Positions 7,991 to 26,132 of a stretch of 55,430 bases of DNA are shown here, piece after piece; the stretch's first letter is position 1; every line of letters starts with the position of its first letter. Under the pieces are notes generated by a model. That model saw only the letters and a program-made list of their open reading frames with translations. It ran no database searches and was not told the origin of the DNA. A program made the translations under genes and the position numbers. This stretch comes from an uncultured Nitrososphaerota archaeon (lineage in GTDB: Archaea > Thermoproteota > Methanomethylicia > Methanomethylicales > Methanomethylicaceae), in contig CAYZHK010000002.1 in the NCBI GenBank assembly GCA_964477685.1, positions 1 through 55,430 on the forward strand, read 5' to 3'.

Positions 7991-8949
7991 CCCCAGAGGG
8001 CATGGCATTGACAGACCTTGTCTTCGGAGCTGTAAAGGCTTCATCCAGAAAGGGCAAGCTCTTCACAGAGCAGCAGATCATTGACCTAGTTGGCTCCAGG
8101 GATCTGAAGGACCTCCAGAACAGGATAAAGGAGAGGTATCCCCTCCTCGCGGCTGCCACTCCCTCGCTGAAGGGCATAGAGGAGGGTCTGATCAAGTCGT
8201 ACAAGGATGAGATTGATAGGTTCATCAAGGCCACTCCGGATCTGGAGCCGGCCTTGAGGATGGCCCAGCGGGAGGTTGATGAGTACAGGGCAATAGAGAC
8301 CCTGAAGAGCCGAGTGGGGATCTTCGCCACCGACTCGAAAGGGGGGGAGAGGAGACCCCTGAAGGAGGACGCAGCCCAATCGGCGCTGAAGGGCTTTGAG
8401 CGGGAAGTGGAGGAGGCGACCGAGATCTATGAGAAGTACAAGGTGCCGGGGCTCATCGACGCGGTCTTTGCACGCCAGAGGATACGAAACCTGTTCAGCA
8501 CCGATGCGGGAATGACCAAGGATGTCTTGGAGGAATTGGGAGAATATGCGAGGCTTAAGGCAGATGTCTTCAACATCAGCGTCCTGCTCAGGGGCATAAA
8601 GAACGGAATCGACCGAAAGGCACTGATGGAGATGGTCTTGCCCGGCGGGGGCATCTCGTGGAAACTGCTCCAAGAGGCGGCCAAGCAGGCGGAGATCAAG
8701 AAGGCCATGACGCTTTTGGAGGTGGCAGGCCTCCCCAAGACGGATTCCCCCCGCGCCCTGGAGAGGTTCTATGAGAGCAGGATATCGAAGATGATGAATC
8801 GGGCGTATTATGACGGCTACTTGGGGGCAGGTGCCATAATGGGCTACCTGGAGCTGAAGTATCGGGAGATAAGGAATATAATGAGGATAGCGAATGCGAT
8901 AAGCCTTGGCATCGATCCGAAGAGGGCGGTGCAGGACTTCATTTTTTGA
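7987..8949 (+). CDS. atpC: A1AO ATP synthase subunit C (V-type d homologue)
   Basis: 320-aa all-helical protein with AtpC-like ends (YLELKYREIRNIMRIANAI). The GTG at 7987 overlaps the atpH stop as GTGA; an alternative ATG lies at 8002. Confidence 0.75.
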   Translation: MTPEGMALTDLVFGAVKASSRKGKLFTEQQIIDLVGSRDLKDLQNRIKERYPLLAAATPSLKGIEEGLIKSYKDEIDRFIKATPDLEPALRMAQREVDEYRAIETLKSRVGIFATDSKGGERRPLKEDAAQSALKGFEREVEEATEIYEKYKVPGLIDAVFARQRIRNLFSTDAGMTKDVLEELGEYARLKADVFNISVLLRGIKNGIDRKALMEMVLPGGGISWKLLQEAAKQAEIKKAMTLLEVAGLPKTDSPRALERFYESRISKMMNRAYYDGYLGAGAIMGYLELKYREIRNIMRIANAISLGIDPKRAVQDFIF

Positions 8950-10858
8950 TTATCGGTATTTCATTGTCTAGCCTGAAGGGCGAGAACCTGACGCCCCCAT
9001 CTTCGTAGAACCTGCTGAACCACTCGTAGAAGTGGAGCCTCAGGTCTTGGGCAAGAACGATTACCCCTTCGATAAGGACCACAAAGACGTTGCCGAGGAC
9101 GGCGAGGATGATTCCTAGGACTCCTCCACCCACCATATCCCCTAGGATGTAAAAGACCGTGGAGAGCATCACATGGGCCACCACCATCGCAAAGATCCTG
9201 AGGTATGAAACCGTGTTGGATATGAACCTTATGATGGTGTCAAATGTCTCGAACCCCATCTCCCCAAGCGCAGACATCCCCTTCTTTGCTCCGTGCTTCA
9301 GCATCTCGTAAATGGGCTTGGCCAGCATGAAGGTGAAGAGGGGGACAAGAATGATGTACAGAGGCCCTCCCACCCAGTGGGTGAGGTCCAGTCCATAGTA
9401 GACGATTACAAGGATTGAAGCGAAGTACAAGACGAGCCTGGGCACCCCCACCAGCAGTGCATCCACCTTCTTCTTCTGGAGCATGTTGTTGGCTATCCCC
9501 ATCACCATCCCCATGCTTATCTGGAAGACACCTATCACCAGGGCGAAGATGAGAAGCTGCATGATGTCCTCCTCGATGCCATGGGGGGTGATGAGACCGG
9601 GGTAGATGTGGTTTCCGAATGCCTCTCCATAGAGGATGGCGCCCATGATGGAGCCGGCGATGCCACATATTACGAGGTACAGCCCAATTTTTGAGAGGGA
9701 CTTGACGTACCGATTCAGGATCATCCCCAGAGCGGCCAGCATGATTCCGTGCCCAATATCCCCGAACATCATGCCGAAGAAGATGGGGAAGGTCAATGCC
9801 AATATGGGGGTGGGATTCAGTTCGTTGTAATTGGGGACACCGTACAGGTTTGTTATCGTATAGAACCGACCGAAAAACTTGGGGTATTTGAATGTGACGG
9901 GCACAAGGGGGGAAGAATGCTCCTCGTTCAGCGAATATAACATGCGCCCGCTGAGGCTTCCATTCAACTCGTCGATGAGGGAGCCCCCCTGCTTTGTGGG
10001 GACATAGCCTTCGACTAGGGACCACCGGCCCTCCACAGATGATGTTTCCCTTATGGAGAGGATGGAATAGGATTCGGAGAGGACGGAGGAGATGTGCCTC
10101 ATCCTGGGCATCACGGCCAGAAGGGATGCCGTTCTCTCCTTGATGGAGCTGTCCCCTTTTTTCAGGGTGGCATCGTAGGAACTGATGAACCCTCCCAGCG
10201 AAGCCGGATCTTGGGGCACGCCCTCCAGGCTCTGCAGCGGGAGATACCCCCTCTCCGAAGCCTGCTGGAGAACCTTGGGCGCGTCCCCATTCAGGCATAC
10301 GACAAGCAGTATCCTTGGTGATTCCCGAAGGAGATAAACCAGGCTGGATTCCGGGAGCTCGCTGCCGATCTCAGTCGGTGATTCGGATTCGGTGCTGAGC
10401 AGCAGGGTTGCGAGGCCCTTGTATGAATTCAGGAAGGGGAGGGAGGCACGGCCGTCGGGCGAGGAGTAAAGGTTGCTCCAGAGGGAGTAAAGAGTTCGGG
10501 CGGCGCTGGCACTTACCGCCTCGGCCTCGAGCTGCTGGACCTGCTTCTCAAACTCCACGACTTCCCTATTGACGATCTCCACAAAGGATGGCCAGTCGGG
10601 TGCGCTTATTGGTGGTGGCGCGGCTTGGGTCATGGACGCCTGGGCATCAGAGACCAGCAGTTCAGCCCTTCCAATGATTTCCCTGATCCTGCCCATGAGG
10701 TCTTGGACCTTGTAGCCCAAGTCAGATGTTGCCAGCCCTTCGGCCTCCTTCACCGTGAGGTGGAAGGCGCCATGGCTGTGGAAGGCCTTAAGCACCAGCT
10801 CAGAGTCGTCACTCAGAAATAGAATCTTTGCCTGGGACATTGATTCTGGACGGAGCAT
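8939..10858 (-). CDS. atpI: A1AO ATP synthase subunit I (stator a-subunit)
   Basis: 639 aa with a soluble N-half plus a multi-TM C-half containing YLRIFAMVVAHVML and LRLHFYEWFSRFY. Directly downstream of atpK. Confidence 0.85.
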   Translation of the reverse strand: MLRPESMSQAKILFLSDDSELVLKAFHSHGAFHLTVKEAEGLATSDLGYKVQDLMGRIREIIGRAELLVSDAQASMTQAAPPPISAPDWPSFVEIVNREVVEFEKQVQQLEAEAVSASAARTLYSLWSNLYSSPDGRASLPFLNSYKGLATLLLSTESESPTEIGSELPESSLVYLLRESPRILLVVCLNGDAPKVLQQASERGYLPLQSLEGVPQDPASLGGFISSYDATLKKGDSSIKERTASLLAVMPRMRHISSVLSESYSILSIRETSSVEGRWSLVEGYVPTKQGGSLIDELNGSLSGRMLYSLNEEHSSPLVPVTFKYPKFFGRFYTITNLYGVPNYNELNPTPILALTFPIFFGMMFGDIGHGIMLAALGMILNRYVKSLSKIGLYLVICGIAGSIMGAILYGEAFGNHIYPGLITPHGIEEDIMQLLIFALVIGVFQISMGMVMGIANNMLQKKKVDALLVGVPRLVLYFASILVIVYYGLDLTHWVGGPLYIILVPLFTFMLAKPIYEMLKHGAKKGMSALGEMGFETFDTIIRFISNTVSYLRIFAMVVAHVMLSTVFYILGDMVGGGVLGIILAVLGNVFVVLIEGVIVLAQDLRLHFYEWFSRFYEDGGVRFSPFRLDNEIPIIKK

Positions 10859-10874
10859 TAGGGAGACATCCAGG

Positions 10875-11237
10875 CTATATCCTCAACCACAACAGGATCG
10901 CTATGACTACACCGTATATGGCAACCGCTTCGCAGAGTGTGACGATCAGGAATGCCTTGAAGAAGGTCTCGGGCTTCTCCACGAGGGCAGAGATTGCCGC
11001 TGCGCCTGCCCTAGCAAGGCTGATTCCGGCTGCTATGCCAGCAAGGCCGACCGCAAGGCCGGCGCCAATGGCAATTAGGCCAGCATCTGCTCCAGTCGTC
11101 TGAGCAGGCTGGGCCTGGGCCATTGCTTGGACCCCACTCACAGCGATCGCAAGGAGAAATATTGGGGCAATTATCACAAGGGCTAAGAAGATGCGCTTTC
11201 GGTCTTCGTTGGAAAAATCATTAAACCTCATAGCCAA
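10875..11237 (-). CDS. atpK: A1AO ATP synthase proteolipid subunit K (c), with an N-terminal hydrophobic extension
   Basis: A single c-type hairpin: [38 protein letters not shown] ... [16 protein letters not shown], with carboxylate E103. It is preceded by about 50 aa that include one hydrophobic helix. Confidence 0.85.
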
Positions 11238-11247
11238 TCTCTCGCCT

Positions 11248-25205: not shown

Positions 25206-25498
25206 TCCTCCGTCCTGAATATCCTGGCAAATACTATGGTTCCAACGCCCCCAAAGACCAAGAGGGCAATGGCGGTGTCCCTGGCGAAGCCAACATTGAA
25301 GAGTTCAGGGAGCGAAATAAGGTAGAGCCCAGCTCCAGCTATGGTGGTGAAGCAGCTCACTCCCATAAGGGATGTGATCGCCTCGCCCTTCAGGGCTAGG
25401 CGGATGCACCCAAGCCCAGCCAGGGTGAGGGCCACAAGAAAAATGAGGGCGGACCAGAAGAAGGCCGTCCCTGCCAGGGTAACAAGGAAGTCACTCAT
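25202..25498 (-). CDS. MrpF/MnhF-like subunit
   Basis: 98 aa, 3 TM. Start at MSDFLV gives an ATGA overlap with the MrpE-like gene. The family call rests on size, topology and position after MrpE. Confidence 0.6.
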   Translation of the reverse strand: MSDFLVTLAGTAFFWSALIFLVALTLAGLGCIRLALKGEAITSLMGVSCFTTIAGAGLYLISLPELFNVGFARDTAIALLVFGGVGTIVFARIFRTEE

Positions 25499-25800
25499 TC
25501 GCCCAACCACCCAAGGACGTGGGGCTCGAGGGGAGTAACGTCTGCCCTTCCCCTCGGATTTATTGCGCCCACGATATACTGCCTCTTTTCACGGTCAATC
25601 TCGATCGTGACTGTGCCGGGGGTATAGGTAATGCTGTTAGCCACCATTACCTGTCCCAATGGATTCTTGACGTCTGTGTCAATGTGCACAATACATGGGT
25701 CAATGTCTCCGTTGAGGCACCTTTTACTGACATCTATAACGGAGGCCAGGATCTCTCTCACCAGTCTGAGCCAATACCTGATTCCATAAACCAGACCCAT
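25495..25800 (-). CDS. MrpE/MnhE-like subunit
   Basis: 101 aa. VMVANSITYTPGTVTIEID matches the MnhE ITLTPGT motif. Confidence 0.75.
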   Translation of the reverse strand: MGLVYGIRYWLRLVREILASVIDVSKRCLNGDIDPCIVHIDTDVKNPLGQVMVANSITYTPGTVTIEIDREKRQYIVGAINPRGRADVTPLEPHVLGWLGE

Positions 25801-25806
25801 AGCTAT

Positions 25807-26091
25807 TCACCTTAGTACCCTATTCAGACCGACAATGAACGCGCGGCCATAGTCCATGTAAGAACCTTCGTCACCCGGTCTCACTTCAATGGCAATCGAT
25901 CTGTCCTGCCCATTCCCAATGAAGATGACCAGGTGCACCATCCGCCCCTTATCTTTTTTATGGAGGTGAAGCGTCCCCCTCTCCGGATCATCGACAGAAA
26001 TAAAGTAGCCTTGATCTTTGGCAACCTCTAGGGTTTTTTCATGCAGGGCAGAGTTGGTGGCGAAGTATCTCGCGAAAAGCGTGGGGACCAT
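25807..26091 (-). CDS. Hypothetical 94-aa soluble protein, first gene of the block
   Basis: Begins MVPTLFARYF... No TM helix and no recognised motif. Lies 6 nt upstream of the MrpE-like gene. An alternative GTG start at 26127 would sit almost on top of the TATA candidate. Confidence 0.5.
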   Translation of the reverse strand: MVPTLFARYFATNSALHEKTLEVAKDQGYFISVDDPERGTLHLHKKDKGRMVHLVIFIGNGQDRSIAIEVRPGDEGSYMDYGRAFIVGLNRVLR

Positions 26092-26132
26092 AGATGAACA
26101 TTCCCGCAATGGAGAGAGATTAGGCACCGGTG

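Follow-up and report, generated by a model that had tools for sequence, protein, structure and literature searches.

Does an archaeon express an ion-translocating hydrogenase and the ATP synthase that could use its gradient as one unit? The question is raised by contig CAYZHK010000002.1 of an uncultured archaeon, from which a stretch of 55,430 nt was analysed (hereafter the window, meaning the whole stretch and not the feature alone). The host belongs to the Methanomethylicia (Verstraetearchaeota), and the locus is chromosomal. On the minus strand of the window, the genes of Ehb (energy-converting hydrogenase B) lie directly ahead of the genes of an A1AO ATP synthase. We lean, with somewhat better than even confidence, towards the expression of both from one polycistronic unit, in which Ehb would act as a catabolic, gradient-building site. 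That a single unit of about 17 kb is a reasonable hypothesis is suggested by the arrangement itself, since it is real, is conserved in relatives, has no run of five T (T5) near the junction of the two gene sets and carries Shine-Dalgarno (SD)-like motifs.

The listing of the open reading frames (ORFs), their translations and a table of their junctions gave 26 genes on the minus strand, from the ATG of orf1 at 26091 to the stop of atpI at 8939, 17,153 nt in total. All junctions join genes of the same strand. They lie between -13 and +16 nt, the widest overlap being 13 nt and the longest spacer 16 nt, so that no gap in the array fits a stand-alone promoter or terminator. Ten junctions are 4-nt ATGA overlaps (25495-98, 25202-05, 24717-20, 24463-66, 24092-95, 21388-91, 20004-07, 19573-76, 19085-88 and 15800-03), the 13-nt overlap is that of ehbF and ehbG, a 1-nt overlap joins fdx1 and fdx2, and the remaining spacers measure 0-16 nt. 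All of these coordinates, as given in the initial annotation of the window, were verified, and the 8-nt spacer that it had placed between the last hydrogenase ORF and atpF proved exact, with no oligo-T tract near it. The stop codon of ehbP occupies 16108-16110 and the ATG of atpF begins at 16099, which leaves:

16100-16107, minus strand: ehbP-atpF spacer, 8 nt, CCTCCACA

An SD-like AAGGAG lies within the final ehbP codons, ahead of atpF, and SD-like GGAGG/GGTG motifs precede nearly all starts of the array. The count of 26 needs the two smallest ORFs, orf1 and a 49-aa ORF, both of which are probably real, since orf1 is conserved at 46-55% and the 49-aa ORF has positional counterparts.

Such a junction could be an assembly chimera or a chance juxtaposition peculiar to this contig, which we consider hardly conceivable. 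Two contigs from other samples, both independent metagenome assemblies, are gapless and collinear with the window across the junction, L001 over 13125-20657 at 99.99% identity and L002 over 14669-21842 at 99.93%. They rule out an assembly artefact at the ehbP-atpF junction and answer the question of the initial annotation about assembly support near 16.1 kb, as both reproduce the junction at an identity of at least 99.9%. In addition, many samples contributed further loci with the adjacency, about 30 in all.

Which hydrogenase is encoded here? By family matches and gene order, the 18-gene block (orf1 and ehbA-P, 9,984 nt, in the same orientation as atpF) encodes an Ehb-type energy-converting group 4 [NiFe] hydrogenase, with a membrane module that resembles Mrp. 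Its genes, all on the minus strand, are:

25807-26091, minus strand: orf1, 94 aa, leads the block; 46-55% identity, in crown Methanomethylicia only
25495-25800, minus strand: ehbA, MnhE-like membrane subunit (PF01899, 1.5e-18; NF004922, 107 bits against a cutoff of 99)
25202-25498, minus strand: ehbB, MnhF-like (NF009254, 8e-11, under its cutoff), with an ATGA overlap on both sides
24717-25205, minus strand: ehbC, MnhG-like (PF03334, 1.8e-6)
24463-24720, minus strand: ehbD, MbhD family (PF13244, 4e-14)
24092-24466, minus strand: ehbE, MnhC/NuoK-like (PF00420, 5e-18; NF005618, 122 bits against a cutoff of 107)
22566-24095, minus strand: ehbF, antiporter-like NuoL/M/N-type subunit (PF00361; NF004920, 3e-108)
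22252-22578, minus strand: membrane protein in the ehbG position, 108 aa, conserved in position and sequence in relatives; overlaps ehbF by 13 nt
21388-22248, minus strand: ehbH, MnhB-like (PF04039, 2e-8)
21131-21391, minus strand: small membrane protein in the ehbI position, 86 aa, conserved in Methanomethylicia relatives
20666-21130, minus strand: polyferredoxin piece 1, four CxxCxxCxxxC motifs
20004-20666, minus strand: polyferredoxin piece 2, six CxxCxxCxxxC motifs
19573-20007, minus strand: polyferredoxin piece 3, four CxxCxxCxxxC motifs
19085-19576, minus strand: ehbL, 2[4Fe-4S] ferredoxin subunit (NF004914, 188 bits against a cutoff of 163), two cluster motifs
18639-19088, minus strand: ehbM, [NiFe] hydrogenase small subunit, NuoB-like (PF01058, 2e-28)
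17444-18637, minus strand: ehbN, [NiFe] hydrogenase large subunit (PF00346 and PF00374)
16394-17440, minus strand: ehbO, NuoH-like membrane subunit (PF00146, 3e-17)
16108-16383, minus strand: ehbP, last hydrogenase gene (PF10622, Ehbp, 4e-15, 56 bits against a cutoff of 27)

The order of the block is collinear with ehbA-P in about 70 loci from Methanobacteriales, Methanofastidiosa, Hadarchaeota and others, as mapped by tblastn with the window proteins, and the EhbP subunit is encoded right after the NuoH-like subunit, as in Ehb. Among the NCBIfam models, those for EhbA-, EhbE- and EhbL-like proteins matched above their cutoffs, while for ehbF the best model was 'energy conserving hydrogenase EhbF' (NF004920) with 363 bits, below its cutoff of 578. 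EhbN carries the Ni-Fe cysteine motifs CGIC (residues 76-79) and DPCLTC (364-369), which are invariant in 26 aligned relatives; it is 69-85% identical to Methanomethylicia proteins and 47-55% identical to those of Methanobacteriales and Methanofastidiosa. Its closest named homologues are annotated as 'energy-converting hydrogenase B subunit N', and its closest solved structure is MbhL (6CFW, E 5e-48). The three adjacent polyferredoxin genes (19573-21130, minus strand) hold 4 + 6 + 4 = 14 cluster motifs, which together with the two of ehbL match the cluster numbers of Methanothermobacter, where EhbK is a 14[4Fe4S] polyferredoxin and EhbL a 2[4Fe4S] ferredoxin (PMC3087415). No family match was obtained for the proteins in the ehbG and ehbI positions, nor any Pfam, NCBIfam or PDB match for orf1. 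Neither the outgroup Ehb loci nor the Ehb-less relatives yielded a counterpart of orf1 in tblastn.

The initial annotation had described the hydrogenase as Mrp-linked, of the Mbh type, a label that has to be replaced. No NuoC/MbhK-like (Complex1_30kDa) subunit was found among the family profile matches of the 18 block proteins, and it is this together with the EhbP domain, the ehbA-P collinearity and the EhbN homologues that identifies the complex as Ehb and not Mbh. Membership in Mbh was ruled out on these grounds and on the presence of four ferredoxin genes with 16 clusters.

Eight genes follow on the 3' side of the ehb block, atpF, E, A, B, D, the 49-aa ORF, K and I. Pfam matches were obtained for all seven A1AO subunits encoded in 8939-16099, namely A, B, D, E, F, c (K) and a (I), and two further genes approach from the opposite strand:

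15800-16099, minus strand: atpF (PF01990, 2e-17)
15192-15803, minus strand: atpE (PF01991, 1.5e-10)
13427-15184, minus strand: atpA, catalytic subunit (PF00006, PF16886, PF22919)
12047-13426, minus strand: atpB (Pfam match)
11404-12036, minus strand: atpD (PF01813, 3e-48)
11248-11397, minus strand: 49-aa coiled-coil ORF between atpD and atpK, with counterparts of 40-60 aa in the same position
10875-11231, minus strand: atpK, c subunit (PF00137, 2e-17)
8939-10858, minus strand: atpI, a subunit, final gene of the array (PF01496, 6e-38)
7987-8949, plus strand: atpC, convergent with atpI, the 3' ends overlapping by 11 nt (PF01992, 5e-24)
7622-7990, plus strand: 122-aa protein ahead of atpC (V-ATPase_G_2, E 0.027, a sub-threshold match over most of the profile)

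The convergent arrangement of atpC is identical in all relatives, and the position of the 122-aa protein, possibly atpH of the peripheral stalk, is conserved in relatives.

Is the junction of hydrogenase and ATP synthase genes peculiar to this genome? A genome scan with an EhbN alignment yielded 80 loci, onto which the window proteins were mapped by tblastn, and a metagenome scan with an EhbP alignment yielded 27 loci, some of them duplicates of contigs of metagenome-assembled genomes (MAGs) that were already counted; among the genome loci, those that extend past ehbP were informative. The survey of relatives bore out the hydrogenase-atpF adjacency noticed in the initial annotation. It was present in all 11 informative Methanomethylicia genome loci (L007-L014, L016, L017 and the divergent L071), with atpF-E-A-B-D-K-I directly after ehbP and atpC convergent, and in 24 of the 25 informative metagenome loci. 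The ehbP-atpF spacer measures -1 to 30 nt in the genome loci and 4-31 nt in the metagenome loci, apart from 63 nt in the divergent lineage (L071 and L120; EhbN 58% and AtpA 64% identity). The cultured relative Methanosuratincola has the same ehbP-atpF junction. In about 65 outgroup Ehb loci (Methanobacteriales, Methanofastidiosa, Hadarchaeota, NM3 and others), no atp genes were found within 10 kb of ehbP.

What does the same place look like in relatives that have no Ehb? Contigs of Ehb-less Methanomethylicota (L087, L089 and L090) were reached through their AtpA homologues, which are 68-69% identical to AtpA of the window, and no ehb genes were found on them. Their order is prolyl-tRNA synthetase (ProRS), a 400-aa gene of the MJ0043_C family, a divergent intergenic region of 155-200 nt, atpF-E-A-B-D-(40-42 aa ORF)-K-I, convergent atpC, a 107-aa ORF and TrmI, with phosphoenolpyruvate (PEP) synthase further beyond TrmI. 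In L087 and L089 the ProRS/MJ0043_C flank thus stands directly before atpF. The corresponding flank of the window, which precedes orf1 in all Ehb-bearing relatives as well, is:

26247-29014, plus strand: divergent flank with the genes of a 435-aa protein (in relatives, of the MJ0043_C family) and of prolyl-tRNA synthetase

Both the flanks and the atp order of the window and of all Ehb-bearing relatives are exactly those of the Ehb-less contigs, the single difference being the 9,984-nt orf1-ehbA-P block. Since atpF directly follows the same flank in the Ehb-less relatives, the block occupies the exact space between the divergent promoter region and atpF. The comparison is a clean example of a 10-kb respiratory module that fits exactly into the space separating a promoter region from the leading gene of a housekeeping operon. 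The upstream region of the window showed no obvious similarity to that of atpF in L087 and L089 when compared by eye, without alignment. A Bathyarchaeota locus has an atp core that begins with atpF-E-A-B-D, also without ehb.

Where could transcription of the array begin and end? The search for expression signals drew on AT-rich windows, on T-runs and on a motif taken from the relatives. A promoter-like element lies upstream of the whole array:

26134-26145, minus strand: element resembling a transcription factor B recognition element and TATA box (BRE/TATA-like), AAGAGTTATAAA, lying some 43 nt upstream of the ATG of orf1

The motif AAAnGTTATWAA is conserved upstream of orf1 in L007-L017, and its core GTTATWAA has two copies in the 55-kb window, against 0.43 expected by chance. 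The only other copy is at 11266-11273, as part of:

11266-11277, minus strand: second promoter-like element, GAAAGTTATAAA, inside the 49-aa ORF and 35 nt upstream of the atpK ATG

In several relatives, L012 and L098 among them, TATA-like elements stand some 40 nt upstream of atpK; positions and start codons were less clear in L087 and L089. Thus, atpK-atpI probably have an additional internal promoter boosting the c and a subunits. The claim of the initial annotation that the only AT-rich, promoter-like spacer lies upstream of the array holds for intergenic spacers; within coding sequence, however, TATA-like AT-rich stretches were also found at 16150-16164 (ehbP), 15834-15849 (atpF) and 11266-11276 (49-aa ORF). 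No sense-strand T5 run was found between 24799 and 11643, and therefore no termination-like signal stands at the ehb-atp junction. An RNA hairpin at the junction, sequestering the SD motif or serving as terminator, was considered and rejected, as the fold was no better than that of shuffled sequences (z = -0.83).

These signals fit read-through from the upstream promoter into atpF, without proving it. Transcription would begin at the BRE/TATA-like element at 26134-26145 and proceed through the 8-nt ehbP-atpF spacer, giving one long polycistronic RNA for hydrogenase and ATP synthase whose cistrons would be linked by the ATGA overlaps and SD-like motifs. The element in the 49-aa ORF would give rise to extra atpK/atpI transcripts, and atpC and probably atpH would be made from a convergent trmI-p122-atpC unit. 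The notion of a complete chain expressed as one unit, as the initial annotation had put it, therefore stands in part only: the arrangement is real and conserved, but atpC and the probable atpH are on the opposite strand and atpK-atpI probably have their extra promoter.

Several points weigh against a single unit. The single informative metagenome locus that departs from the arrangement, L118 (contig Ga0180301_10004470, 6001-7063), carries an rpl13e-like gene after ehbP and then, in convergent orientation, a hydrogenase maturation protease. In the divergent lineage, GTTATAG occurs within the 63-nt spacer, which has room for a promoter. The unrelated flanking genes ProRS, TrmI and PEP synthase are as conserved in position as ehb-atp, and because of this the conserved adjacency alone is not proof of selection for linkage. 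The sense-strand T5 runs number 5, about as many as base composition predicts, which makes their absence at the junction weak evidence. The AT-rich stretch GAAAAATTAAAGAAA at 16150-16164, inside ehbP and 51 nt before atpF, could be an embedded promoter. Lastly, co-transcription of ehb and atp is read from sequence, on which it is plausible.

Some of these points would be explained if ehb and atp were two abutting but separate units. The atp genes would then have kept a promoter of their own, now within the 3' coding end of ehbP, and compaction after an old insertion would account for the close spacing. The TATA-like stretch in ehbP and the GTTATAG of the divergent lineage would be the traces of such a promoter, the atpK element shows that internal promoter-like elements do occur in the array, and the equal synteny of unrelated neighbours would mean that the region is simply stable. 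However, GAAAAATTAAAGAAA encodes a Lys-rich EKLKKVK motif that is also conserved in EhbP of outgroup lineages without atp linkage, so coding constraint alone accounts for its AT-richness. The stretch is also a poor match to the conserved upstream motif, and the motif scan of the 55-kb window found no GTTATWAA near atpF. Furthermore, the relatives differ in how far the stretch lies from the start of atpF (48 to 77 nt), and no oligo-T tract stands close to the junction. We therefore regard two separate units as rather unlikely.

How the ehb block came to its place was examined with bootstrapped neighbour-joining trees of single proteins. In the AtpA tree, the Ehb-less L087 and L089 are sister to the crown group (90% bootstrap) and the atp-linked L071 and L091 branch deeper. 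In the EhbN tree, Ehb of all Methanomethylicota forms one clade (100%), within which the unlinked L118 is sister to the atp-linked L071 and L091 (100%). The two trees disagree, and a single gain with later loss or relocation and two separate gains both remain readings of them. L118, with unlinked ehb, and L090, with Ehb-less atp, share their metagenome of origin and are alike in GC content; L118 may be the unlinked ehb of the L090 lineage.

If both complexes are made from one unit, in which direction would Ehb work? Ehb would couple the redox chemistry of ferredoxin and H2 to ion translocation, and the ATP synthase would use the same gradient. As a catabolic coupling site, it would oxidise reduced ferredoxin, release H2 and build the gradient. 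This role is the one that we favour from the gene arrangement, because an Ehb expressed in concert with the ATP synthase would more readily have a main role in energy conservation than an anabolic role at a low level. The energy-conservation parts named for Methanomethylicia include an Fpo-like complex alongside Ehb and the ATP synthase (PMC6421429; bioRxiv 10.1101/2022.08.18.504445; PMC7289024), and in the methyl-reducing Methanosphaera Ehb has been proposed to oxidise reduced ferredoxin and so generate a gradient (PMC7374477). Against a catabolic role stands the Ehb of Methanothermobacter and Methanococcus, which has been described as a mainly anabolic user of the gradient (PMC3087415).

The two complexes may instead be co-expressed with Ehb running in reverse: H2 would reduce ferredoxin at the expense of a gradient set up by other complexes, or by the ATPase encoded alongside as it hydrolyses ATP. 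In that case the operon would unite two complexes that spend the gradient, or would amount to an ATP-driven module for ferredoxin reduction. Besides the anabolic role in the model organisms, such a reversal would suit some Methanomethylicia MAGs without MvhADG/HdrABC, which would have to reach reduced ferredoxin from H2 by some other route (bioRxiv 10.1101/2022.08.18.504445), and for Bathyarchaeia a reduction of ferredoxin driven by an ATPase has been put forward (PMC7886697). The proposal for Methanosphaera speaks the other way, and 18 ehb genes ahead of the atp genes would imply a high expression that is unusual for an anaplerotic enzyme. Nothing in the sequence itself settles whether Ehb generates or consumes the gradient. 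A reversed Ehb appears to us unlikely, though with appreciable weight, and the catabolic, gradient-building Ehb remains our preferred reading.

A bolder proposal is that the ehb-atp array encodes a machine co-assembled in fixed stoichiometry, either an Ehb-ATP synthase supercomplex or a module in which ATP hydrolysis drives the reduction of ferredoxin by H2. We consider it very doubtful. If true, the machine would be the core bioenergetic device of the methyl-reducing methanogens of the Thermoproteota, and the 10-kb ehb block would be a cassette whose gain or loss took place exactly at the promoter of the atp genes.

How does the array compare with known systems? Closest is the ehbA-Q operon of Methanothermobacter, Methanococcus and Methanosphaera, whose genes from ehbA to ehbP encode the same subunits in the same order: MnhE/F/G-like subunits, MbhD, a NuoK-like subunit, EhbF, an MnhB-like subunit, ferredoxins, small and large subunits, a NuoH-like subunit and EhbP. 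The likeness extends to the 14 + 2 [4Fe-4S] clusters of EhbK/EhbL and to EhbN, 47-55% identical. In Methanothermobacter, however, this operon stands alone (MTH1251-1235) and the ATP synthase genes ahaHIKECFABDG are separate (MTH952-961) (PMC3087415). The window also differs in that EhbK is split over three genes, an extra orf1 comes first, ehbQ is missing and atpF follows after 8 nt.

The 'minimal respiratory chain' of Thermococcales such as Pyrococcus furiosus, Mbh together with an A1AO ATP synthase, follows the same logic, with a group 4 [NiFe] hydrogenase carrying an Mrp-like membrane arm and an A-type ATP synthase sharing one ion gradient. The hydrogenase of the window is of another subgroup, with EhbP and large polyferredoxins and without the NuoC/MbhK-like subunit, whereas the Mbh set comprises 14 subunits, MbhA-N, with a NuoC-like MbhK and a NuoI-like MbhN as its only ferredoxin subunit. 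In Thermococcales, the Mbh and ATP synthase genes are, as far as is known, separate loci. Within the Methanomethylicota themselves, the Ehb-less atp operon described above is the nearest counterpart. A supposed precedent, a hydrogenase-ATPase cluster in Thermoprofundales, was discarded, since the paper concerned makes no mention of a link to an ATPase.

Both complexes and their presence in Methanomethylicia are already known, and the adjacency is visible in public genomes. No mention of the ehb-atp adjacency was found in the available parts of the searchable literature on Methanomethylicia, a scope that leaves Vanwonterghem 2016, Kohtz 2024 and Wu 2024 outside. The same literature appears to contain no description of the conserved array, of exactly where it is placed compared with Ehb-less relatives, or of the division of EhbK over several genes. 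What is new is a lineage-wide array in which the ATP synthase genes are directly preceded by those of an ion-translocating hydrogenase. If transcribed as one RNA, it would be an unusually long archaeal operon of 26 genes and 17 kb, from which Ehb and ATP synthase would be made in step. Ehb would then be a main energy-coupling site in Methanomethylicia, unlike the anabolic helper that it is in classical methanogens.

A few smaller observations concern the ATP synthase genes and the rest of the window. The coiled-coil ORF between atpD and atpK, of 40-60 aa, was present in every Methanomethylicota lineage examined, including the Ehb-less ones (L087, 13796-13924; L089, 11696-11818); the 49-aa copy of the window gave no family match and may be an unrecognised small subunit of the ATP synthase. 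The ion-binding motif of the c subunit is LCEAVAIYG in the window and LAEA(L/I)AIYG in relatives, of the same type with or without Ehb, lacking Ser/Thr after the Glu and showing no informative difference between Ehb-bearing and Ehb-less lineages. Ser/Thr after the Glu is typical of Na+ sites in c subunits. No tRNA or Rfam elements were found in the 55-kb window, and its remaining annotated genes are housekeeping genes (RadA, PEP synthase, ProRS, fibrillarin/Nop5 and TFB).

On the plus strand, trmI, the gene of the 122-aa protein and atpC overlap one another (6892-8949) and run convergently into atpI. A tRNA methyltransferase would thus be co-expressed, in all relatives, with two ATP synthase subunits (atpC and the putative atpH) from the strand opposite to the array. 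At 8940-8945, the last atpI codons before the TGA, AAA AAA, read as T6 on the plus strand, inside the final atpC codons. This hexamer may double as atpI coding sequence and as the oligo-T termination signal of the convergent atpC transcript.

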